Shown here piece after piece: positions 29,427-45,810 of a stretch of 64,000 bases of DNA (within the stretch, counting starts at the first letter, position 1; the number at the start of each line of letters is the position of its first letter). The notes beneath the pieces were generated by a model, which saw only the letters and a list, made by a program, of their open reading frames with translations, had not been told where the DNA came from and searched no databases. The stretch covers positions 96,001-160,000 of the IMG/VR virus record IMGVR_UViG_3300020471_000006, one strand, 5' to 3'. This stretch comes from a virus (Duplodnaviria; Caudoviricetes). Made by a program: the position numbers and the translations under genes.

Positions 29427-30815
29427 ATGGCACTCTTAGTCACCGACAACGGCGAAATTGATTCTCTAAGGAATCTGCTGAATTATTCACAGAATATCCC
29501 TAGGAACCTTATTCTTAAGTTGTTCACTACAGATACATATCCTGCTGAGAGTGATACTCCCTCTCAAACAAGATATTTCGAACCATATACCGATAACAAT
29601 ACTAACGGTTACGGTTCAGGACCTACTACAGGTTATCCTGGAATCATTAACAATAGAACTGATCAGGATTATGCACAGCAATATGGTATCTTACTGAACG
29701 GTAACCGTTGGGGAATCGAGACTGAACCAACTGCTGTTACAACAACTAATGGTGATGGTACATCTGGAACATACCTAGTTACGGTTGCTTCTAACACAGG
29801 TATTAAAAAGGGTGACTATGTTACTGGTGGATCTGTCGGCACTGGTGCATATGTTGTTGACATTGATGGTACTACACTTAACCTAAGTGTTAAGAACACT
29901 GGTAACTTCACTGCACAACCATTGAGTTTTGGTAGAGGTAGAACAACTGCTTCTTATCCTGAGCAAACATTCACCTTTGATGGTCCTGCTGGTAACGTAT
30001 ACGGTTATTTCCTCTCACGTGCTAACAACATGCCTACAACCATTCATGGTGTGGCTGATGCTGGTACTGCTGCTGCTGGAACACAGATTTCTAAGTCTGG
30101 TGTAAGGGGAACTATCGGTAACAACTATATTACTCTTGCTGCTGTTGCTGCAACTACTGCTTCTACTGGTACTGCTGGTGAGTTCGAAGTTGTTGTTACA
30201 TCTACAACTGGAATTGCTGTTAATCAGCGTGTTACAGGAACTAACGTTGCTCAGGGAGCACGTGTTACTGGAATCGTTGGTACTACAGTTTATCTAAGTA
30301 AGGCAAACGGTGGTGCTGTTAGTGGCGACTTGGTATTCCAAGCAAACGTTGCTGAGGATCTTGCTCTTGGAATGAGAGTTTCTCAGACAACTACACCTAA
30401 CGGTATCGATGCTGCTACAGTTATTACTGGTATCGACTACGAAACAGACGATGCAGATGGAACAGTAACTGTATTCCTCAATAACGTTCTTATTGAGAAC
30501 ATTCAGACTTCTAACGGTAATGACGTTGTTAAGTTTGACTTCAGTAAAGTAACTGCTACAGGTCATGGTCTAGAACCAGGCGACGCAGTTTATATCGATC
30601 AGGGAACAGGTAACACCACAACTACTGCTGGTACTTACATTGTATTTGAGACACCTGATGCAAACACCTTCACGACTACTAAAGCACTTGATGGTACAGG
30701 TTCTGTGACACTCTATGATGCGATATTCTTCGCTGAAAGGTTCACAAATGGTCCTTACGCTATTCAAAACGCTGGTGACCAGATCAAAGTAACTCTGAAC
30801 GTCAGCCTAGACTGA
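29427..30815 (+). CDS. Virion structural protein (probably highly expressed)
   Basis: Own double late promoter, SD GAGG and downstream terminator; Thr/Gly-rich; YPEQTFTF...VYGYF and AERFTNGPYAIQNAGDQIKVT motifs. Confidence 0.8.
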   Translation: MALLVTDNGEIDSLRNLLNYSQNIPRNLILKLFTTDTYPAESDTPSQTRYFEPYTDNNTNGYGSGPTTGYPGIINNRTDQDYAQQYGILLNGNRWGIETEPTAVTTTNGDGTSGTYLVTVASNTGIKKGDYVTGGSVGTGAYVVDIDGTTLNLSVKNTGNFTAQPLSFGRGRTTASYPEQTFTFDGPAGNVYGYFLSRANNMPTTIHGVADAGTAAAGTQISKSGVRGTIGNNYITLAAVAATTASTGTAGEFEVVVTSTTGIAVNQRVTGTNVAQGARVTGIVGTTVYLSKANGGAVSGDLVFQANVAEDLALGMRVSQTTTPNGIDAATVITGIDYETDDADGTVTVFLNNVLIENIQTSNGNDVVKFDFSKVTATGHGLEPGDAVYIDQGTGNTTTTAGTYIVFETPDANTFTTTKALDGTGSVTLYDAIFFAERFTNGPYAIQNAGDQIKVTLNVSLD

Positions 30816-30845
30816 TTAATTCAATTGATTTCATTATTATGTGTG

Positions 30846-30873
30846 AGGGGATTCAGTACTGGATCCCCTTTTT
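30846..30873 (+). terminator. Rho-independent terminator
   Basis: AGGGGATTCA-gtac-TGGATCCCCT stem (one G-U pair) followed by a T run. Confidence 0.8.
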
Positions 30874-30890
30874 ATTTTAGTGGAGGGTAA

Positions 30891-33800
30891 ATGGCAACGC
30901 ACATCTATACAACTGGTATAGACGGACCTTATGGGTCTAGTTTTGCGTTGCGTATTTTTAGTGGCGAGAGACATTCATATTCATGGAATCCTTCATGTGT
31001 TGAGGAGTTTATACAACTCGACTACGGTTTAAATTCATTAGCATTAACACCCACAACCATCATAGATGGTGGATCTATCAACGACGTAGAAGCTGTCGAA
31101 GTAGATGATTGGGGTAGAATAATTTACACAGATACTGTCCGACCTTACGGTTTTGTTAGACCGAAGACTGCTACAACGTGGACAGTTCTACATGCATGGG
31201 TTGGTACAGGTACTGTCTTTGAGATGGTCGGTAGTTACTATCGTCTGTCTGCTCCTTGGATCGTTCAAGGTACGGTACGAGTATCAGGTAGTGCGGTTAC
31301 ACACTGGGTTCCAGACCTCGAATTCGACGGGCTGTTTGGGATCCAGTCCCTCACAACGGAAGCTTTCTCTAAGAAAGAATCTGGTGAAGGTGAACTGTAC
31401 AAGCTTGGTGCTGGTGCAGTTACTAGAAGTATTTCAATTGAGTCCAAAGGACTATTCAGATTCAAGAGTAACGCAGGGGTTTCCTTTAGACCTAACTGGG
31501 TGGGATCAGGTACAGCCCAGATTTCTGGAGAAGTCTCAGGTATTAAGCGTACATTTGGATTTGAGGGTTCAGGTACTCTACCTAATATTAGTAGCGAAGA
31601 TAACAGAAGAACATACGCATATAATAATTCTGCTGTTGTTCCATTCGAATATGAGGACTACGGAACGATTCCGATACAGTCCTATCAAATCATTACTACA
31701 AACCAAGTACTGTCAGGTGTAAGTACTGGTTCTGTAGTACAAATTAATCCTACAATAACTGCAACTGTAGATCCTAGTGGATATCAGATTGCACCTCATT
31801 CGGGTACGTTTACAAACTCGATTGAACATGCTCCAGTGTCTGTTGGTAAGACAACCAACCTTGACTGGGGTCTTCTTAGTATCACTGGTACTCTATATCC
31901 ATACGGTCTCGGTCAAGTCAAGGGTACTGCTAAAGTTAACTTTGTACCTAATTGGATTGGTACTGGTGAAGTTAAAGTATTTGGTAAAGGTAGAGGAAGA
32001 ACCAAACCGAAATGGATTGGATTCGTCAGGAATCTTGTTACTGGTACTCTTGCAGAGAGAACTACTGTCACTGAGATTGGATCTGGTGTACTATTCAACT
32101 TCTCTAGAGCAGACGAGGCATTTACCTTTACCTATGAAGGTTCTGGTAATCTATACAAAATTGGTGGTGGTGAAGAAAGTGTCACTACAGACTACGTTGG
32201 TACTGGTACTCTCGCTCAACTTCAATCTAACGTTAAGGTCAACTTCGTACCTAACTGGAGAGGTTCTGGTGTTGTTGATGTCACAGGTGAAGTCTCCAAC
32301 GTTAAGAGATCATTTGGTGAGCAACCATTTGGTGTCATTCCAGTCTTCACTGGAGATGCATATGCTGAGAGAGTTACTTGGGATTACAACGATAGTTCTA
32401 TCTTACCATTTGGTTATGAAGACTTCGGTCCATTACCAGGAACTGCTACTGTCGAGGAGATCAATACAAATACGATCCTCTCAGGTACATCTACAGGATC
32501 TGTTGTAAGAATCAATGTTGGTGTTGTTGCGGTAGTAGATCCAGACTACACAATCTCACTTGTATCTAACTTCACACCAGGTGCAACCTTTGATTATGGT
32601 CTGGTTTCTGAAGGGTTCAATGGACCTATTGATTGGGGATATATTGCCCAGACAATCTGGAATTATCCTTTTGGTGGTTTCCAATATACCAGCAATACAC
32701 ATACATCACAAACCAAAGGATTTGTTGCAGAGAAGACATTCGATGCATCGATCAAGATTCGTTCTGCAACGTGGGTACGTATTAACCCACAGTGGGAAGG
32801 ATTTATTCCGATTGATGTTACTGGTGCTGCTACTTACAGTGTTACTAGACCATACACAGGTGAAGGTCGTGCATTCAGTATTGTATACGCTGAAGCTTCA
32901 CGTGTATTTGATTACGTTGGTGAAGGTCAGATCTACAAGATTGGTGGTGCAGTTGAATCTGTATCCTTCAACCCAGATGAGAAACAGGCTCTATTCCCAA
33001 TCAGGGGTGTTGCTGACGTTAGATTCGCACCTAACTGGAATGCCTTTGGTACTCTATGGGCATCTTATGGAACAGCAGAACCTGTACTTAGATCCTTTGC
33101 TTATGAAGGCACAGGTGTTCTACCTACTCTTGTTGGTACAGAGAATAGAAGAACTTACTCTTACAATGATTCTTCTGAGAATCTATATCAGTACAGAGAT
33201 TATGCAAGTCTACCTGGTGTCGGTACTATCACCGAGATCACACCAAGTCAGAGTATCTCTGGTACATCACCAACTTCTATTATCAGAATTGGTCTCAATG
33301 GTGTTGTTGCAAACATACCTCTTGGTCAGACATACGAGATCGATCCTTGGCTCACCACTGGAGCAACAACAGTCCACGACTGTGGATTTATCACCGATCC
33401 TGGTGCAACGGTAAGAGAGGATTATGGATTCACATCCACAATCAGTTCTATCAGAACAAAAGTTTCCGAATACCCATTTGGAAAACTTGTCAGTTTTGTT
33501 TCTCTATCAGCACCTTCACAGACCAAGATCTTCATATCGGATCCGATTCCTTGGGAACATGCGATCAAGATTCGTTCCGATGCAGCAGTTCGTGTACCAC
33601 CTCAGTGGGTTACCAACGATCCAACACTTTGGACTTGGAGTGGTGCAGCAGAATGTACAGTATCTGTTCCTCCAACAACACCACCATTATTCAAGTTTGC
33701 TGGTGGTTACACAGATCTCAAGTTCATCACAGCAGAAGAAGGTTCTGCTCATATGGAACTATCTGGTACTTGTCAAGAGGCAGTTGTATCAGACAACTAC

Positions 33801-36344
33801 AGATTCGTTACTATCGACGTTTCTGGAAACGCAGCAGAGAACTTCAGTCTCCACTTCCATGGATCTGGAAATCTATATTCTATTGGTCGCAGTGCAGAAG
33901 CGATTACAATCGACATACCTGCATTCCAAGCAGATCTTACATTTGGTGGATTCGGAAGTCAGAGATTTACTGTTGCAGAACAGTTTACTGTCGATATCGA
34001 TCTTTCTGGTACTGCAATCGAAAGACAGACAGACGATTGGGTTGGTCAATCTCATACAGAGATATTCAACGTTTCTGTTGTACCACTTATTACGAAGCAT
34101 TGGACTGGCGAAGGTCGGATCTTCAACTTCAGTGGTGCAGTCGAAGCGGTTACATTCAACCCACTCGAACTTGGAGCACTATTCGACTTTACAGGTCGTC
34201 TCGACGAGAGTCGTGCAATTGCTATTGCTGGTCTGGTTCACACAGAAGTACGTGGAACAGCAAGTCCTGCAAAACTTACATTCGCAGAGCAACTATTTGG
34301 TCGTACAGAAGTATACGGTCAAGCAGATCTTCTCAGGACACACGCTTACACAGGCGATGGTCAGGTCTTCTCTGTTGGTGGTGCAGCAGAATCTATTACT
34401 CTCAAACTTCCAGAGTTTACAGCAGACGCAGTTCTCAAGGGTGCTGTCAAACAGAGCTTCACCTTTGGTGGTATTATTGGATCTGGTGTCTTCACAGTCT
34501 TTGGAGAGATTGCAGATCCACTACTTACATTCGCAGAACAACCACTCGGAGACATCTACGTCAGTGGTATTGCAGATGTTGTCAACGTCGATATTCACTT
34601 TGGTGTTGGTGGACTGTTCTCTATTGGTGCAGCAGACGAAGCAATCACAGTCAAGATACCTGCATTCACAGCAGATATCCAGTTTGGTACAGAGTTTGCA
34701 GATATTCGTGCCACATACAGAGAGATTGGTCAAGCAGAAATTCTCTTCAGTGGAGAAGTTTCAGAACCAATCCTCACATTTGCAGAGCAACCAAGAATCG
34801 AAGTCGATATATTTGGTGCTTCTACATCTTCCAGATCCCACGTATGGGTTGGCGAAGGTCGTATATTTGCTATCAGTGGTGCAGCAGAGAGTGTCACATT
34901 TGTCTTGCCAGAATTCCAGGCAGACATGGTGTTCAAAGGGTTTGGTTCATTCAAACAAACCTTCAGCGAAAGATTCACAATCGAATCCAAACTGTCTGGT
35001 GCAGCAAGTATCAAGTACATTCCAAACTGGATTGGTTCTGGTACTGCAACAGTCGATGTTACATCTACATTCTCTCGTACCAAAATCTTTATTGGAGAAG
35101 GACGCATCTTCAATATCAGTGGTGCATCCGAAAGTGTTACCTTCAATCCAGAAGAGAGACAGTTACTATTCTCTATTGGTGGCACAAGGGCAACAGAAAA
35201 TGTTGTATGGAGTCCAGACGAAGTACCAGTATTCGTCGATATTACTGGAAAGGCATTCGAGAGATTCACACCAAACAATATTGGTTCTGGTACTATCTAC
35301 GTCGATGTCGATACATCCGAACGTATTACAAAGGACTTTGTTGGAGAAGGACGTATCTTCAACATCAGTGGTGCTTCAGAGAGTTTCACTGTCAACCCAG
35401 ACGAGACTACTGCACTATTCTCTATTGGTGGTGTTTCAAGTCAGGTTGTTGTCAGAAGAGAGATTGTATTTGGTACACTCTTTGCATTCTCTGGTGCTTC
35501 AGAAAGTGTTGGAGTCGCACCACTTGCAGACGGTCTCTTTACATTCAAGGGTCGTGCAGAGGAAGCAACAACATACGCAGAAGTTGGATTCGGAGATCTA
35601 TTCAACTTTGTTAGCAGTATTGAGCGTCGCACATTTGACTGGACTTCTCAAATCGATCTTGGTGTTTCTGGTATTGCAGACGAGAAACATACAGAAGCAT
35701 ACTCAGGATTTGGAAATCTATACAACTTCTCTGGTGCAGCAGAGACAATTACATTCTCTCCAGAACTTTATGGAGTTGTACATGTATTTGGTGTTGCCGA
35801 TACTCCAAGAACAAGAGTTACAGTTGGAACTGGATCATTCTTCACATGGAACAATGCATCCGAATCCAGAACAATTGCAGTCGAGAATGTTGCAATCTTC
35901 GACTTCTTGGGTGTTGCAAGACAGGCAGTTGTCAGAAACATTGTTACAGATGTCACTGTCGAGGTCAGAGGATCAGGTGCAGAATCCTTTACAAGGAAAG
36001 GATATGTTGGAGAAGGTTCCGCACAATTCTCTGGAGAATCTACTTCCAGTATCACAAGGATCGAAGAGGGTACAGGAAGAATCGATGTCTTCGAAGAGGA
36101 CAATATTCCTCTTATCGTCAAGACATTTACTGGTTCAGGTCGCATACCTTCTGTCTCAAATGCAGGAGTCCTCCGTACCTTCAGTTACGATGGACATTGC
36201 CCAATTGAGATTGATATTACAACCAAGGTTATTGCACCTTATCAGAGATTTGTATCTGAAGGTGGAGTTATTCTACATGTTGGTGATGCTGAGACAAGAC
36301 GCATACAAGTTGCACCACCAAGATCTTATGGATGGATCATATAA
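30891..36344 (+). CDS. Large repeat-rich virion structural protein (1817 aa)
   Basis: SD GGAGG; many W.G.G...V.G and GEGRIFNISGASES.TFNP / FAEQP repeats; late gene context. Confidence 0.85.
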   Translation: MATHIYTTGIDGPYGSSFALRIFSGERHSYSWNPSCVEEFIQLDYGLNSLALTPTTIIDGGSINDVEAVEVDDWGRIIYTDTVRPYGFVRPKTATTWTVLHAWVGTGTVFEMVGSYYRLSAPWIVQGTVRVSGSAVTHWVPDLEFDGLFGIQSLTTEAFSKKESGEGELYKLGAGAVTRSISIESKGLFRFKSNAGVSFRPNWVGSGTAQISGEVSGIKRTFGFEGSGTLPNISSEDNRRTYAYNNSAVVPFEYEDYGTIPIQSYQIITTNQVLSGVSTGSVVQINPTITATVDPSGYQIAPHSGTFTNSIEHAPVSVGKTTNLDWGLLSITGTLYPYGLGQVKGTAKVNFVPNWIGTGEVKVFGKGRGRTKPKWIGFVRNLVTGTLAERTTVTEIGSGVLFNFSRADEAFTFTYEGSGNLYKIGGGEESVTTDYVGTGTLAQLQSNVKVNFVPNWRGSGVVDVTGEVSNVKRSFGEQPFGVIPVFTGDAYAERVTWDYNDSSILPFGYEDFGPLPGTATVEEINTNTILSGTSTGSVVRINVGVVAVVDPDYTISLVSNFTPGATFDYGLVSEGFNGPIDWGYIAQTIWNYPFGGFQYTSNTHTSQTKGFVAEKTFDASIKIRSATWVRINPQWEGFIPIDVTGAATYSVTRPYTGEGRAFSIVYAEASRVFDYVGEGQIYKIGGAVESVSFNPDEKQALFPIRGVADVRFAPNWNAFGTLWASYGTAEPVLRSFAYEGTGVLPTLVGTENRRTYSYNDSSENLYQYRDYASLPGVGTITEITPSQSISGTSPTSIIRIGLNGVVANIPLGQTYEIDPWLTTGATTVHDCGFITDPGATVREDYGFTSTISSIRTKVSEYPFGKLVSFVSLSAPSQTKIFISDPIPWEHAIKIRSDAAVRVPPQWVTNDPTLWTWSGAAECTVSVPPTTPPLFKFAGGYTDLKFITAEEGSAHMELSGTCQEAVVSDNYRFVTIDVSGNAAENFSLHFHGSGNLYSIGRSAEAITIDIPAFQADLTFGGFGSQRFTVAEQFTVDIDLSGTAIERQTDDWVGQSHTEIFNVSVVPLITKHWTGEGRIFNFSGAVEAVTFNPLELGALFDFTGRLDESRAIAIAGLVHTEVRGTASPAKLTFAEQLFGRTEVYGQADLLRTHAYTGDGQVFSVGGAAESITLKLPEFTADAVLKGAVKQSFTFGGIIGSGVFTVFGEIADPLLTFAEQPLGDIYVSGIADVVNVDIHFGVGGLFSIGAADEAITVKIPAFTADIQFGTEFADIRATYREIGQAEILFSGEVSEPILTFAEQPRIEVDIFGASTSSRSHVWVGEGRIFAISGAAESVTFVLPEFQADMVFKGFGSFKQTFSERFTIESKLSGAASIKYIPNWIGSGTATVDVTSTFSRTKIFIGEGRIFNISGASESVTFNPEERQLLFSIGGTRATENVVWSPDEVPVFVDITGKAFERFTPNNIGSGTIYVDVDTSERITKDFVGEGRIFNISGASESFTVNPDETTALFSIGGVSSQVVVRREIVFGTLFAFSGASESVGVAPLADGLFTFKGRAEEATTYAEVGFGDLFNFVSSIERRTFDWTSQIDLGVSGIADEKHTEAYSGFGNLYNFSGAAETITFSPELYGVVHVFGVADTPRTRVTVGTGSFFTWNNASESRTIAVENVAIFDFLGVARQAVVRNIVTDVTVEVRGSGAESFTRKGYVGEGSAQFSGESTSSITRIEEGTGRIDVFEEDNIPLIVKTFTGSGRIPSVSNAGVLRTFSYDGHCPIEIDITTKVIAPYQRFVSEGGVILHVGDAETRRIQVAPPRSYGWII
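33415..35611 (+). other. Region with all three + strand reading frames open (stop-triplet desert)
   Basis: Main frame plus ORFs 33347-35614 (+2) and 33424-36360 (+1) overlap; no TAA/TAG/TGA between 33415 and 35611. Confidence 0.9.
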
Positions 36345-36345
36345 G

Positions 36346-36363
36346 ATAAATATAACATAAATA
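36346..36363 (+). promoter_or_regulatory. Two late promoter variants (ATAAATA x2)
   Basis: ATAAATA at 36346-36352 and 36357-36363, upstream of ATG 36387. Confidence 0.65.
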
Positions 36364-36386
36364 TACTTGGTATCGAATAATCACTG

Positions 36387-36848
36387 ATGACAACTCAGGT
36401 TCAATTCCGAAGAGGTACTACAGCTGAGCATGCTCTCTTCACTGGGGCGCAGGGTGAACTGACGATTGATACTGACAAGAACATGGCCGTCATTCATGAC
36501 GGAACCACTACTGGTGGATTTGACGTTTTTAGGGCTAGATGGGAATATATCAATTCAAATCAAACTCTTGGAACAAGCCTTCGTTATTTGGTGGACTCTT
36601 CAAATGGTCCAATATCGTTAACCCTTCCGCTTTACAATAATCAATTAGTTCCCAAATCTGGGGATGTAATAGAGTTTATTGACGTAAAGTTTAGTTGGGA
36701 TATAAATAATGTTACTCTGACGGACCCTATCGGACGACAATTCCAGAATACATTTGGAGTTATATCATCACCTCTGGTGTTTGATGTCAAAGGAGCAAGT
36801 GTCCAACTTATTTGGGAAGGAGTTTACTGGAGGGTAATAGTCCAATGA
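36387..36848 (+). CDS. Virion/tail protein with Mtd-N-like N-terminus and gp9/10-like beta domain
   Basis: QVQFRRGTTAEH..FTGAQGELTIDTDK...IHDG.T.GG, then YLVDSSNGPISLTLP...GDVIEFID. Confidence 0.75.
   Translation: MTTQVQFRRGTTAEHALFTGAQGELTIDTDKNMAVIHDGTTTGGFDVFRARWEYINSNQTLGTSLRYLVDSSNGPISLTLPLYNNQLVPKSGDVIEFIDVKFSWDINNVTLTDPIGRQFQNTFGVISSPLVFDVKGASVQLIWEGVYWRVIVQ
36701..36708 (+). promoter_or_regulatory. Gene-internal consensus late promoter
   Basis: TATAAATA inside 36387-36848, about 140 nt upstream of the next gene. Confidence 0.5.
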
Positions 36849-42114: not shown

Positions 42115-43041
42115 ATGTCGAGTTTACGAGATCTATTAGATGTACCTGAAGCAGATGTAGTCCCTATACAAACGTATATGGGCGGTGGTCAGCATCAGAT
42201 ATATTATAGAGGAAATATGTGTTGGCAGTTTGAGAGTTCGTATAACTACGACTGGCAACGTATAAGATGGTGCGTCCCTAACAGCTGCATCTGTAGGGTT
42301 AAGTTTGAAATCTGGGGTGGCGGTGGAGGCGGCTCTGGTACATGTTGCTGCTCTATTGCTTGGCCTGGTCACTCTGGTCAGTACAGTGCTTGTACTGTTT
42401 GTGCTGCTGTACAAAGTGTCTCCCAGTTAGACGGTTGTTGTTATGATATATGTGTCGCCAATGGTACGTGTAGATACCCTTCTGGCGGTGGTTTTGATGG
42501 TTGCAAATCCTATATTAGTGGTCCAGGATTAAGCGACTTCTGTGCATGTGGTGGTTGTCATGGTCATCAGTGTTGTCACTGGATTGATTCCTACTTTGCT
42601 TGTAGAACCAGAATAACAGATACTGGTAAATCTTGTTCTAGAAGTCAAAGCGAACACTATACAATTAATAGTAGTGATTGCATGGATCAGTGTGAAAAGT
42701 ATGGTAAGTGGTATTGGAACGGTCTTACTCCTTATATTCATTATGATTGCAACCCTGGTTGTGGTAACTATTGCATGAAGAAAGACTACCATCCATATCC
42801 TGCTATGTACGGTGCTCGTTATGGAGTTGTTAATGGTTACAGAAAGCATACTATGGCAACTTGTGGTAGAACTGAAACACTATGGTTGACAGGTAACAAC
42901 GGTGGACTCTCAGGAGACTGCTGGAGAAACGGTCCTCCTGGTTCTGGTGGTGTATCTGCTCAGGTGTTTGGTGGTGGTTGCTGCTGTTCTTCTGAGGGTG
43001 CTCATGGACTCGTAAGAATCACTCTATACTGTAAAACATAA
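42115..43041 (+). CDS. Cys/Gly-rich putative receptor-binding or tail-tip protein 1
   Basis: FEIWGGGGGGSGTCCC; 32 Cys in 308 aa; C-terminal GGGCCC...GLVRIT. Confidence 0.75.
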   Translation: MSSLRDLLDVPEADVVPIQTYMGGGQHQIYYRGNMCWQFESSYNYDWQRIRWCVPNSCICRVKFEIWGGGGGGSGTCCCSIAWPGHSGQYSACTVCAAVQSVSQLDGCCYDICVANGTCRYPSGGGFDGCKSYISGPGLSDFCACGGCHGHQCCHWIDSYFACRTRITDTGKSCSRSQSEHYTINSSDCMDQCEKYGKWYWNGLTPYIHYDCNPGCGNYCMKKDYHPYPAMYGARYGVVNGYRKHTMATCGRTETLWLTGNNGGLSGDCWRNGPPGSGGVSAQVFGGGCCCSSEGAHGLVRITLYCKT

Positions 43042-43051
43042 GGAAAGGCAA

Positions 43052-43990
43052 ATGAATTTACGAGAACTATTAGGAAGAGAATTTGCTTCGACAATACAAG
43101 AAACAGTTGCAGCAAATACTGCACTAGAAAGGAACCACGAAGGTAGAGTATTCTTATTCCATCCTTATTGTAACGAAGGTAACTGTGAAAGTAGTTACAG
43201 AGGTTACTGTCTTCAGTATTGGTGTGTTCCTTGTGGTACTACTCAAGCAACTTTCGAGTTGTGGGGTGGAGGCGGTTCAGGCGGTGGTGCTTGCTGCTGT
43301 CAACAAGGTATGCCTGGTGGTGCTGGAGGATACGTAAGAAAGACTCTTGAGTATCCACAGATACAAGGTGGTTGGTGTTATTCACTCTGTGTTGCATCAC
43401 CTAACTGCTGCTCAAGATGCTGCTGTGGTATTAGAGGATGTAAAACATGGGTTAGTGGTTGTAACTTAAACAACCTCTGTGCTGATGGTGGACTTCCTGG
43501 TAAGACATGTTGCTGGGCTTTCTGGAACTCAACATATAGATGCCAAGATAAAGTTTCTTGGGGTGGATGTGGAGGATGGAGACTTCACGAAGATGGAGCA
43601 TGCTCCTACGGTGGAGATGAGATGATTAAGGGAAGACCTGGTGCTTTCATCACTCACTGTAATGATAATAACTGTTGGACAAAAGGATTGATGCCTTATC
43701 CTGCTGGTCTTATCAATCAAAAAGGTGGATGGTTAACACAAAACTATCAAGGTAATGCATGTATACATCAATACATGTATTGCTCAGGTACGACTCCTTG
43801 GGCGTACAACATTAACTGTAACGGTGGTCCAGGACTTCCTGGAACTGGTGCTCCTTCTGCTACTGCGTGTGGTGGTGGATGCTGTTACGGATGGCGTGGT
43901 GGCGGTGGATTCATTAGAATCACATACTGCTCATGCTGGTTACAGACAAGTTCACAGAACGAAGACTGTGCTTGGTACTACTTTAACTAA
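43052..43990 (+). CDS. Cys/Gly-rich putative receptor-binding or tail-tip protein 2
   Basis: FELWGGGGSGGGACCC; 34 Cys in 312 aa; PYPAG; GGGCC...GFIRIT. Confidence 0.75.
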   Translation: MNLRELLGREFASTIQETVAANTALERNHEGRVFLFHPYCNEGNCESSYRGYCLQYWCVPCGTTQATFELWGGGGSGGGACCCQQGMPGGAGGYVRKTLEYPQIQGGWCYSLCVASPNCCSRCCCGIRGCKTWVSGCNLNNLCADGGLPGKTCCWAFWNSTYRCQDKVSWGGCGGWRLHEDGACSYGGDEMIKGRPGAFITHCNDNNCWTKGLMPYPAGLINQKGGWLTQNYQGNACIHQYMYCSGTTPWAYNINCNGGPGLPGTGAPSATACGGGCCYGWRGGGGFIRITYCSCWLQTSSQNEDCAWYYFN

Positions 43991-43993
43991 ATA
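43987..43993 (+). promoter_or_regulatory. Late promoter variant (CTAAATA)
   Basis: Overlaps the stop of 43052-43990, 20 nt upstream of ATG 44014. Confidence 0.5.
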
Positions 43994-44013
43994 AGAGGAC
44001 AGAGGCACTATAG

Positions 44014-44919
44014 ATGGCTAATACAAATTTACGAGATCTATTAGGATTCGTTACATCAGATTCATTGGAGGGACTATCAGCACCCGATGCTACCACAAAA
44101 CTAGCAAGACTACCGTCTGCTGGTTATTGTGTACAGTATATTCACGGTGCTTGTGGTTCAACTTGTAGTGAACATTCCACCAATTACAACTACTATAGGT
44201 ATCCACTCTGGTGTATTCCTACTGGAGTCTGTGATGTTATCTTCGAAATCTGGGGTGCTGGAGGCGGTGGAGGATCATCCTGCTGCTGTTCTAGGGGCAT
44301 GCCTTCTGGTTCTGGTGCATATGCGTGGAAACGTATTACAGGTGCTGCGTCATCTCTTCAAGGATGTTCATATGATATTCATGTAGGTAGACCTGGTTGT
44401 GGTAGAACTGGATCACAGTGTGGTAATCAAGGTGGTACTAGTTACATCACTGGTTATGGTTTGAGTAACTTCTGTGCTAGAGGTGGACATGGAGGATGCT
44501 CATGCTGCTTCCTATGCTGCTGCACATGGAATGCTCAATCAATGGGTAGTTGCCCTTATGGTTGCTGTGCAACTTATCACGGTGCAGACGGTGGAGCATA
44601 CGGTGTTCCTGGTGCTGCTTACGTATTCTGTTACAATAACCATTGCTGGAACAAACAACACGTTCCTTATCCTGCTGGATTAGTTAATGGTAAAGGTGGT
44701 TGGATGACTGCTGTTACTTGTGAAAACAGTGGATGTGGACATTGCATGCTACATTGGGCATCTGCTCAGTTAGGATGGGGTGGATCATTCTCTGATCACA
44801 ACTATGTACCTGGTGTTGGTGGACCTTCTGGTTGGACTTGCAGTGGTGGTTGTTGTCGTGGAGAGAACGGTACTGCTGGTATGATCCGTATCAACTTCAA
44901 GTACGACGAAAACTTGTAA
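44014..44919 (+). CDS. Cys/Gly-rich putative receptor-binding or tail-tip protein 3
   Basis: FEIWGAGGGGGSSCCC; 29 Cys in 301 aa; PYPAG; SGGCC...GMIRIN. Confidence 0.75.
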   Translation: MANTNLRDLLGFVTSDSLEGLSAPDATTKLARLPSAGYCVQYIHGACGSTCSEHSTNYNYYRYPLWCIPTGVCDVIFEIWGAGGGGGSSCCCSRGMPSGSGAYAWKRITGAASSLQGCSYDIHVGRPGCGRTGSQCGNQGGTSYITGYGLSNFCARGGHGGCSCCFLCCCTWNAQSMGSCPYGCCATYHGADGGAYGVPGAAYVFCYNNHCWNKQHVPYPAGLVNGKGGWMTAVTCENSGCGHCMLHWASAQLGWGGSFSDHNYVPGVGGPSGWTCSGGCCRGENGTAGMIRINFKYDENL

Positions 44920-44923
44920 ATAA

Positions 44924-44931
44924 TATAAATA
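44924..44931 (+). promoter_or_regulatory. Consensus T4 late promoter
   Basis: TATAAATA 24 nt upstream of ATG 44956. Confidence 0.85.
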
Positions 44932-44955
44932 GGAAAGTATAGGTAATCAAAGGTT

Positions 44956-45810
44956 ATGGCTTTTACAAAAACATTCACATATAAAGTACCAGATGATTAT
45001 TTGGCACAAACTGATTCTTTAGGAAAGACTGCTGAATGGACATATGATGGTCCAAGATGGTTGTTCGTTTTCGTTGATAAGGAAACTAACAAATGGATTC
45101 CTTCACAGTCATGTATCGGATTGAATAGAGAGCCAACATCTGGTGACATCGAGCATGCAAATGTACGTGCTGGTATAGATGAAATCGCAGTCCAGATTGA
45201 CATGGCTTCTCCTACTGACGAAGAAGCAATCATTGGTTCTATCCTCTTCCCTAAAGATACTGGTAAAGCATCTGGTTATCCACAAAAGGATTACAAGATT
45301 TCTGGAGACGATACAGTATATTACTCACGTCCAGAACCAATCTCTCCTGACCATGCCTATGCAGCTGATGAGATCGAGTATGATCCAGCAGCAGGTGCTT
45401 GGAAGTCTCCTCTTCCTTGGTTCAAGCCTTGGATTTCAATGGAACAGCATAAAGCAGCAAGAGATACTCTAGTTGCAGATGCTCAAGCAAACCTAGACGC
45501 AGAAGCAACTGAGAATGGTGGTCAGGGTAACCTTACTGACCAGCAAAGAGCTGCTCTTACAGCATTTATTGGCGAATTAAACGGTATCTATACAAAGTTC
45601 CCTGCTGCTGATGGTTGGGGACCACACATGATTCCATTCCCTGATGATCCTCGTACTCCTTGGATTGATGGATATGACTATCGTGTTACAGACTACGAAG
45701 AGTTGATTGATGCTGCAACAGGATTAACTAAGTCTTCTGATGTTCCTGCTGCTGATGTTGTTGAAGATGTACAACAACAAACACTTAGAGACGGCACAAA
45801 AGCTGATTAA
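44956..45810 (+). CDS. Hypothetical tail-associated protein (possible assembly chaperone)
   Basis: Follows the three Cys-rich paralogues; acidic; ends in a ...ELNGIYTKFP...IPFP.DP segment reminiscent of fibre chaperone termini. Confidence 0.6.
   Translation: MAFTKTFTYKVPDDYLAQTDSLGKTAEWTYDGPRWLFVFVDKETNKWIPSQSCIGLNREPTSGDIEHANVRAGIDEIAVQIDMASPTDEEAIIGSILFPKDTGKASGYPQKDYKISGDDTVYYSRPEPISPDHAYAADEIEYDPAAGAWKSPLPWFKPWISMEQHKAARDTLVADAQANLDAEATENGGQGNLTDQQRAALTAFIGELNGIYTKFPAADGWGPHMIPFPDDPRTPWIDGYDYRVTDYEELIDAATGLTKSSDVPAADVVEDVQQQTLRDGTKAD

Follow-up and report, generated by a model that had tools for sequence, protein, structure and literature searches.

The closest described parallel to the locus analyzed here comes from the ambigrammatic narnaviruses, in which a companion frame of kilobase length is held free of stop codons across divergent relatives through synonymous codon choice, and in which only the openness of that frame is selected. 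Their open frame lies on the reverse-complement strand, codon-aligned with the main frame (-0), and runs the full length of the RdRp gene of a 3-kb RNA virus of eukaryotes. This openness of the reverse open reading frames (ORFs) without protein-level constraint has led to the suggestion of a role in ribosome association (PMC8155312, PMC6884476), and the proposal that ribosomes cover the RNA is also tied to PMC8316113. In theoretical work, DeRisi et al. found that stops in the +2 frame can always be removed by synonymous change and that those in the +1 frame mostly can. Here we describe a gene at 30891-36344 of a 64,000-nt stretch of phage DNA (the window, positions 96,001 to 160,000 of the IMG/VR record IMGVR_UViG_3300020471_000006; Duplodnaviria, Caudoviricetes) that contains a 2.2-kb region without stop codons in any forward frame; we refer to it as the desert gene. 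Unlike the narnaviruses, it belongs to a 200-kb double-stranded DNA (dsDNA) phage, its forward +1 and +2 frames are open over part of the gene, the minus strand across the desert carries 117 stops, and the openness is punctuated by islands of stops. The family to which the gene belongs, phrog_11522, appears to be a natural instance of the synonymous removability of stops that DeRisi et al. described.

The ambush hypothesis, according to which hidden off-frame stops are favoured for early termination of frameshifted ribosomes, is likewise concerned with the fate of out-of-frame ribosomes and with synonymous choice. In most discussions, off-frame stops count as "ambush" sites that are either neutral or of slight benefit. 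In the desert family, in contrast, the sign is reversed, and off-frame stops have been removed almost completely. Our literature search found no description of forward-frame stop deserts in phage genes; because of this, and because the sign is opposite to that of the ambush hypothesis, we rate the forward-frame stop desert as new as a phenomenon and leave its mechanism to the competing readings weighed below.

The stop triplets that flank the main desert (Table 1) on the + strand begin at 33412 and 35612, leaving a gap of 2200 nt. For comparison, stop triplets occur at a mean density of 60 per kb in the window; the longest gap in the window beyond the desert gene is 143 nt, and the longest other gaps across the 202,519-bp phage genome are 161 nt (+) and 158 nt (-). 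An initial annotation, made from the sequence alone, had reported the absence of stops from 33415 to 35611, the coexistence of ORFs of 1817 aa (main), 978 aa (+1) and 755 aa (+2), and an expectation of over 100 stops. The stop-free interval and the ORF list agree with that report, and the trinucleotide frequencies of the rest of the window predict ~141 stop triplets for the 2197 nt of the desert.

We compared the desert with a permutation null in which synonymous codons are swapped among positions encoding the same amino acid inside the region, so that the protein and the regional codon usage stay fixed. There are 0 off-frame stops in the real sequence, compared with 74.5±5.3 in 5000 permutations, the lowest of which still held 56. 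By phase, frame +1 contains 0 against 16.4±2.5 expected and frame +2 contains 0 against 58.6±4.9, and the overall expectation rises to 96±7 when the codon usage of the 5' part of the gene drives the null. The same shuffles serve as a "pseudo-ambigram" test of codon bias alone: under regional usage the region is never stop-free. The second, shorter desert shows the same pattern in frame +2, with 0 stops against 13.4±2.4 expected.

The initial annotation had also argued that the signal is specific to stop codons and to the mRNA strand, unlike restriction-site avoidance, and each part of this argument was borne out. Minus-strand stop equivalents remain plentiful in the desert (TTA 26, CTA 25, TCA 66), and the longest minus-strand ORF across it is 182 aa. 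Other T-purine combinations are common as well; indeed, the same-phase junctions T|GG, T|GC, T|GT, T|AC and T|AT, and also TA|C and TA|T, are enriched because codons ending in T and in TA have been relocated to harmless contexts. The use of NNC|GAN in place of NNT|GAN has left its mark in TCG and CGA, both enriched 3.5-3.7 fold, and the GGC-GAA and GGC-GAT spellings that the annotation had listed at 34107, 34353 and 34851 are present in the sequence.

The 5' half of the gene shows that the depletion follows codon phase. Three successive blocks of frame +1 contain 0 stops each, against 3.9, 5.3 and 7.3 expected by permutation, and the +1 stops of this half are confined to islands at codons 10-77, 277-293, 539-549 and 841, where every stop arises from a purine next to a preceding GTA. 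Two of these islands, at codons 277-293 and 539-549, occupy equivalent positions, SGxSTGSVV(Q/R)IN, in the first and second of the N-terminal repeats of ~260 aa. Frame +2, in contrast, has a normal stop density up to codon 762, after which its stops occur only at codons 1574-1582 and 1772-1800. Because depletion in the 5' half is limited to frame +1, avoidance of motifs at the DNA level cannot be the cause, and the selecting agent must sense codon phase. We therefore rejected avoidance of restriction or primase sites, for example YTA/TCA on the template strand, and of promoter hexamers containing TAA or TGA.

The desert gene is the sole outlier in its genome, with a permutation z of -9.5 in frame +1 and -8.8 in frame +2. 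The other 101 ORFs have a mean z of -0.6±1.5 (+1) and +0.85±1.7 (+2); the rest of the genome thus carries a slight, ambush-like excess of +2 stops, which is found in the largest genes and reaches +8.8 in a 6618-aa gene. That gene lies upstream of the window (G000:C1:54071-73927) and has 1015 +2 off-frame stops where 884 are expected; other giant genes of the genome have +2 z values of +2 to +3, likewise opposite in sign to the desert gene.

Table 1. Positions, within the 64,000-nt window, of the desert gene, its open frames, its stop islands and adjoining elements.
Feature	Position	Strand	Description
Main ORF	30891..36344	+	1817 aa; phrog_11522 member, large repetitive protein, tail-fibre/baseplate module
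+1 ORF	33424..36360	+	978 aa
+2 ORF	33347..35614	+	755 aa
Main all-frame desert	33415..35611	+	no TAA/TAG/TGA in any + frame; 2197 nt, codons 842-1573
Second all-frame desert	35639..36205	+	567 nt, codons ~1583-1771; lies in the gap from 35636 to 36206
Open run, frame +1	33415..36357	+	981 codons; +1 stop at 36358-36360, 16 nt past the main stop, before the next gene at 36387
Open run, frame +2	33179..35611	+	811 codons; begins after the last 5' +2 stop at 33176-33178 (codon 762), ends at the mid island
5'-half blocks without stops, frame +1	31123..33411	+	31123-31719, 31771-32505, 32539-33411
Lone +1 stop heading the desert	33412..33414	+	TAA within GTA|AGA, codon 841
Stop island, frame +2	35612..35638	+	three +2 stops (35612 TAG, 35621 TGA, 35636 TGA); separates the two deserts
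Terminal stop cluster, frame +2	36206..36292	+	five +2 stops at codons 1772-1800, close to the gene's 3' end
Intrinsic-terminator-like hairpin and T run	30845..30870	+	directly upstream of the gene; followed by a strong Shine-Dalgarno GGAGGG and ATG at 30891
Two late-promoter-like motifs (GATAAATA, CATAAATA)	36345..36364	+	between the desert gene and the next gene (start 36387)

The same feature is found throughout the gene family. Through a family alignment we gathered 79 viral contigs with 72 complete family genes, down to ~25% identity and including those of the isolates S-CAM1 and S-CAM3, and the deserts hold across this whole set. The longest open run per gene is 0.8-3.4 kb in frame +1 and 0.19-2.7 kb in frame +2; in 86 other genes of at least 800 codons on the same contigs, the maxima are 459 nt (+1), 264 nt (+2) and 143 nt (all frames). 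Across both strands of 1.56 Mb of related phage DNA, all-frame gaps of at least 250 nt occur only in full, partial or split copies of the family gene. Permutation tests on 31 divergent members give median z values of -7.0 (+1) and -9.1 (+2) for the last 1000 codons, and of -5.0 (+1) and -2.4 (+2) for the rest of the gene. Depletion in frame +1 is universal among these 31; depletion in frame +2 depends on the lineage and is weak in L064 and L087. These results show that the signal is very strong, ancient and confined to one gene family.

The layout of the deserts varies with distance. Twelve close relatives (86-99% protein identity) have the same desert with the same boundaries, and the +2 island that ends it is retained in them with turnover of its stops. 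The S-CAM1 homologue has stop gaps of 1684 and 1473 nt divided by a single +2 stop, and the gaps in that of S-CAM3 measure 1203 and 1303 nt. Frame +1 stays open to 5-29 nt beyond the main stop in the majority of homologues, S-CAM1 and L018/L019 among them; in S-CAM3 and certain other lineages it is interrupted by a single mid-gene +1 stop. The usual pattern of frame +2 is a mid island together with a few stops at 40-250 nt from the end of the gene. From clade to clade the extent of the desert differs, and the protein positions of the islands do not correspond. Because the feature is present in the isolates S-CAM1 and S-CAM3 as well as in ~70 independent metagenomic contigs, the desert is not an assembly artefact, a possibility that the initial annotation had raised. 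In one close relative (L012, IMGVR_UViG_3300025102_000230), we observed two extra +2 stops at codons 829 and 859, one of them inside the desert, which shorten the all-frame gap from 2200 to 2142 nt and indicate that occasional stops are tolerated at the desert edge.

Sequence variation among the close relatives reveals what selection acts on. On the consensus background, 34 of the 515 variant alleles in the desert would make an off-frame stop, and every one of the 34 comes with a neighbouring change that prevents it, as when GGT-ATT becomes GGC-AAT or GGA-GAT, or when GGT-GTT becomes GGA-GAA. Because all of these stop-creating alleles are accompanied in this way, selection against off-frame stops is still ongoing. 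Synonymous divergence (dS) among close relatives differs little between the desert and the 5' half, and the nonsynonymous-to-synonymous divergence ratio (dN/dS) is ~0.3-0.5, a high value for a structural gene. From 0.128 in the 5' half, synonymous diversity drops by 23% to 0.098 in the desert; of all synonymous changes that could occur in the desert, about 16% would introduce an off-frame stop, and barring these roughly predicts the reduction. Taken together, the permutations, the phase specificity, the family-wide z values and the compensated alleles show long-term, phase-specific purifying selection against stops in both alternative sense frames of one gene family, and they strongly support the view that this selection works through synonymous and codon-pair choice, on the mRNA strand only. 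Separately, pairwise dS against L005, L008, L010 and L016 swings 5-10 fold between adjacent 100-codon windows (for example from 0.03 to 0.50), a sign that the gene is mosaic and recombining.

Selection acts on the absence of stops only; the proteins that the alternative frames would encode are not constrained, and the gene at 30891-36344 codes for protein in frame 0 only. At main-frame synonymous sites, the rate per possible change is 0.145-0.151 for changes that alter the alternative-frame residue and 0.12-0.19 for those that do not, and the 5' part behaves alike. The alternative-frame dN/dS, a measure that the initial annotation had proposed as a check, is ~1 and lends coding no support. The ATG at 33424 that heads the +1 ORF is TAC in 4 of 12 close relatives (L005, L008, L009, L013). 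Between clades, similarity amounts to 24-171 bits in the alternative frames, explained by composition, against 169-510 bits in frame 0. As the initial annotation had noted, the hypothetical products are skewed: that of frame +2 contains 15% Arg, 9% Cys and 8% Trp, and that of frame +1 is rich in Leu, Ser, Gln and Val. Searches of both translations against Pfam and PHROGs gave no matches. Under a null of synonymous swaps that keep the region stop-free, alternative-frame codon usage is slightly better than expected (z=3.0, 4.8) and there are extra +1 starts (z=4.6). We rejected these as signs of adaptation: ordinary genes give z values in the same range, which points to a general context bias.

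The off-frame stops that do occur in the family are clustered. Within 10 codons of a previous stop, the per-codon chance of another is ~0.05 in frame +1 and ~0.10 in frame +2, near the genomic norm; beyond 80-300 codons it drops to 0.001-0.005. Residual stops lie in tight islands, in the first ~77 codons and close to the 3' end, and frame +1 has a near-normal stop density over the first ~100 codons. Codons of the start type are depleted as well. In-frame ATG, GTG and TTG make up 0.50% of desert-gene codons, the lowest value of the 102 genes in the genome (median 3.4%, next lowest 1.19%). In a family tally covering 30891-36344 of the window and the family genes in L001 and L020-L097, the median is 0.56% (0.24-1.11%), compared with 1.87% (1.07-3.74%) in 54 control ORFs, and Met content is 0.25% compared with 0.93%. 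NTG codons that do not precede A, and so are unable to make a +1 stop, are likewise halved. Out of frame, the 2197-nt desert holds 96 ATG/GTG/TTG triplets in phase +1 and only 10 in phase +2, so that spurious internal starts would feed mostly frame +1, the frame that is open in every lineage.

The explanation we favour, with a probability of roughly 0.35, is that off-frame termination is kept out of the interior of the gene and in-frame starts are kept few there, with the effect that only full-length fibre chains are made. On this proposal, ribosomes do traverse the alternative frames, and their termination inside the gene body would be harmful. Such ribosomes could be those that slip spontaneously by +1 or -1 somewhere along 1800-2500 codons, or could stem from spurious internal starts, for which the 96 phase +1 triplets would be a ready supply. 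With no stops in their path, they would run on to an island or to the gene end instead of stopping mid-gene; combined with the scarcity of in-frame starts, this would leave essentially full-length chains only. When isolated, the attachment domains of phage fibres and tailspikes are able to compete for the virion sites to which these bind. Partial chains of a repetitive, multi-copy and probably oligomeric virion fibre would in the same vein poison assembly, whether as clean C-terminal truncations after a frameshift or as N-terminal truncations produced by internal initiation or by reinitiation past an off-frame stop, whereas long aberrant tails would leave frameshifted chains unstable or incompetent for assembly. 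The deserts probably arose from duplication of stop-free repeat units (the 81-83 aa tandem repeats; the ~260-aa N-terminal repeats with one +1 island each) and would then have been maintained by selection. Within a long open run, a newly arisen stop would affect many ribosomes, and next to an existing stop almost none, which would account for the upkeep of the deserts; the clustering of stops follows if the cost of a stop scales with the number of off-frame ribosomes arriving at it.

Several points weigh against this explanation. The frequency of off-frame ribosomes on the desert-gene mRNA is assumed in it, and the virion location and oligomeric state of the frame-0 protein are presumed from gene context. 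A frameshifted chain with a junk tail keeps its correct N-terminal part, so its harmlessness is an assumption too, and run-on translation costs energy. Other very long fibre or structural genes in the genome (6618, 2701, 2374 and 1364 aa) show the opposite bias or none, which means that a special sensitivity of this family has to be assumed. The depletion of NTG codons is partly a by-product of +1 stop avoidance. Finally, some single-stop islands look maintained, not just tolerated. The +1 TAA at 33412 is present in 12 of 12 relatives, and in L014, where the codon has become ATA (Val to Ile), the TAA is still there; the S-CAM1 clade retains ATT|AGT at -1534, and L053 and L058, which lost that stop, have a new +2 stop 24 nt upstream of it. 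Islands that are maintained in this way would agree less well with error management than with alternative-frame ORFs whose ends are defined.

A different idea, possible although the odds are against it, is that the 3' 2-3 kb of the mRNA is built to be read in each of the three frames, which would make it a forward-strand ambigram of a dsDNA phage, with alternative-frame translation that is itself functional; such reading might shield or regulate the mRNA, or yield minority fibre subunits with trans-frame tails that end at islands. If true, this would be a new mode of gene expression in which the selected trait is openness and not sequence. In one form of it, translation matters for its own sake: ribosomes in any frame stay on the 3' 2-3 kb and stabilise the mRNA or shield it from nucleases or defence, and their products are irrelevant. 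Openness without protein-level constraint is the pattern reported for the narnavirus reverse ORFs, and start-type triplets are plentiful in phase +1. In addition, the gene sits behind a terminator-like hairpin and has no late-promoter motif, so that its mRNA may be scarce. We nevertheless regard this form as unlikely, given that main-frame ribosomes already coat the mRNA, that longer genes of the genome are without the feature, that the +2 islands and terminal +2 stops would break the cover, that the alternative-frame start is not conserved, and that the depletion of in-frame start codons is not predicted. A relay of ribosomes to downstream genes by translational coupling is weakened as a candidate by the late-promoter-like motifs that the next gene has of its own and by the +2 islands, which would halt -1-shifted ribosomes. 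Programmed or high-level frameshifting, the first of three mechanisms offered in the initial annotation, would send a fraction of ribosomes into +1 or -1 and produce trans-frame isoforms whose C-terminal bulk or composition matters and not their sequence. Long open frames past a shift site are its classical footprint, frame +1 does end just past the main stop in most homologues (though not in S-CAM3 and the other lineages where it is broken mid-gene), and maintained-looking islands would define the ends of the products. Phage tail genes provide a precedent in lambda G/GT and T7 gene 10A/10B (PMC5009743), where a long open frame also lies downstream in a gene of the structural module. Unlike in these, neither a slippery site nor a candidate stimulator was detected in the desert: it is devoid of X XXY YYZ heptamers, the only one of the gene being at codon 46, as well as of homopolymers of 5 or longer, and by definition it lacks a stop for a +1 shifty-stop site. 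An Rfam scan of 30500-36800 returned only a sub-threshold L20-leader match in the upstream intergenic region, and the desert heads show no extended low-diversity synonymous patch, in a comparison whose power is limited by its 11 sequences and diversity of ~0.1. Moreover, a single shift site would have no need of two open frames or of several successive open blocks, the trans-frame sequence is unconstrained, and the +2 product would be heavy in Arg, Cys and Trp. We consider frameshifting of this kind improbable.

The other two mechanisms of the initial annotation fare no better, so that of its interpretation the selection for open frames stands and none of the proposed causes is supported. A frameshift-tolerant cassette would let pairs of indels or out-of-frame recombination swap segments without truncation and so diversify a host-recognition protein. 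The protein evolves fast and mosaically, and the gene sits in a host-recognition module; compensatory frameshift pairs contribute to protein evolution according to PMC8935012, and stop-free alternative frames would allow long frame-swapped segments. Unlike in that account, no such pairs were detected in the phrog_11522 family: among 12 relatives and ~515 desert variant alleles, the sole indel is one of 3 nt, and none has a length that is not a multiple of three. When alternative-frame translations of the 72 family genes were compared with the main frames of other members, none matched at E<=0.01 save for a 13-residue match at the L065 split, and the window's alternative frames matched 0 of 121 homologous proteins. 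The sole frameshifts found are two G-run insertions in L065 that break the gene and resemble sequencing errors; the cassette also requires second-order selection, and we think it more doubtful still. The insertions in L065 (L065:10560-10660, IMGVR_UViG_3300050343_000067) are single Gs 35 nt apart that, relative to L046 and L072, split the family gene, and they are probably homopolymer sequencing errors. True overprinted genes in frames +1 and +2 would account for ORF lengths far above chance, which is what overprinted viral and phage genes share with this locus: alternative ORFs far longer than codon-permutation nulls permit, here 0 off-frame stops where 74.5±5.3 are expected. ORF length beyond chance is reportedly the criterion on which single-genome detectors of such overlaps rely. 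The sequence TAA-GAGAGGA-TT-ATG at 33412-33426 also resembles a gene junction. Unlike overprinted genes, however, the desert gene has no alternative-frame constraint, conserved start or alternative-frame homologues, and it has two open frames whose extent varies among lineages. The ATG at 33424 is lost in a third of the close relatives, alternative-frame dN/dS is ~1, main-frame synonymous change is not suppressed beyond stop avoidance, inter-clade similarity is far weaker than in frame 0, no Pfam or PHROG family is matched by products of extreme composition, and ordinary genes do at least as well in the codon usage of their off-frames; overprinting is therefore very improbable. Hardly credible at all is a by-product of composition, codon bias, repeats or avoidance of DNA motifs (restriction or primase sites, promoter hexamers) with no translational selection. 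The desert has a GC content of 44% compared with 38% and is repetitive, TAA and TGA do occur within promoter hexamers, and extreme codon bias alone is reported to yield a stop-free frame in another virus (PMC13262655). Yet permutations that fix the protein and the regional codon usage still give at least 56 stops, the 5' half is depleted in phase +1 only with phase +2 normal, other T-purine junctions are enriched, amino-acid changes come with compensating changes next to them, and the feature persists at ~25-30% protein identity. The probability left over from these readings goes to something not yet imagined.

These observations matter beyond this phage. One phage gene family shows the reverse of ambush: across kilobases, nearly all stops have been cleared from the two alternative sense frames, a condition that has lasted for a very long time, and the cost of the stop-free state is synonymous choice only. 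The implication is either that out-of-frame ribosomes on bacterial and phage mRNAs are frequent and consequential enough to shape sequence, or that translation of "non-coding" frames is functional in its own right, as is suspected for the ambigrammatic narnaviruses. The cultured phages S-CAM1 and S-CAM3 (on Synechococcus WH7803) provide a testable case, as they carry the feature and it can be removed by changes that are synonymous in the main frame. Phase-specific stop deserts combined with in-frame start-codon depletion also make an alignment-free signature for scans of viromes. For gene callers there is a warning: the 755-aa and 978-aa shadow ORFs should not be annotated as genes.

The frame-0 protein matches the PHROG family phrog_11522, which has no assigned function, over its full length (E=4.4e-276), and this profile match together with the conserved neighbourhood places it in the family. 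Upstream of it lie a virion structural protein and phrog_10467, and downstream a tail protein (phrog_9648), phrog_8997 and a 1364-aa tail-fibre protein; S-CAM1 and S-CAM3 have a similar gene order of a 239-aa virion protein, a ~465-aa protein, the homologue, a tail protein and a tail-fibre protein. In a tblastn search of a phage collection, homologues with the same neighbourhood came only from these two Synechococcus phages (30% identity in S-CAM1, 24% in S-CAM3), both Kyanoviridae. The labels "virion gene" and "cyanophage" given in the initial annotation fit this context. A megablast search of the window against the phage collection, from which the lineage of the window itself seems to be absent, gave no match; the protein database contains more than 300 relatives of 1500-3000 aa, some of which bear inserts resembling Reelin subrepeat B or the carbohydrate-binding module CBM35.

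The C-terminal half of the protein consists of in-phase repeats with a period of 243-249 nt (81-83 aa) and the motif ...GEGRIFxISGAAESVTFNP..., the N-terminal part has repeats of ~260 aa, and the best-conserved motif of the family is at the extreme C-terminus, ...PPRTYGWII. A Pfam search with the frame-0 protein gave no match, a profile search of the PDB found no relative of it, and a search of the ESM Atlas returned only unnamed viral clusters with scores below 0.9. AlphaFold2 modelling of residues 1240-1817, from an alignment of only 17 rows, gave a mean pLDDT of 26.5. With regard to expression, the desert gene lacks a late-promoter motif of its own and the next gene has two NATAAATA motifs; TATAAATA late-promoter-like sites are also present elsewhere in the window. 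Judging from these sequence motifs, the desert gene may be expressed only through read-through of the terminator-like hairpin.

ARAGORN identified a single tRNA in the genome, tRNA-Thr(TGT) at G000:C1:52551-52943, which is at the low end for a 200-kb cyanomyovirus. At the same locus there is an overlapping call of a permuted "tmRNA" with an odd tag peptide that is probably spurious; apart from this doubtful call and tRNA-Thr(TGT), the tRNA scan of the genome contained no suppressor or frameshift tRNAs. Elsewhere in the window, four consecutive genes at 42115-45810 (309, 313, 302 and 285 aa) hold the largest all-frame gaps beyond the desert gene, of 89-143 nt. Their +1 stop density is low (0.026-0.032 per codon) and their permutation z is not extreme, which probably reflects composition.

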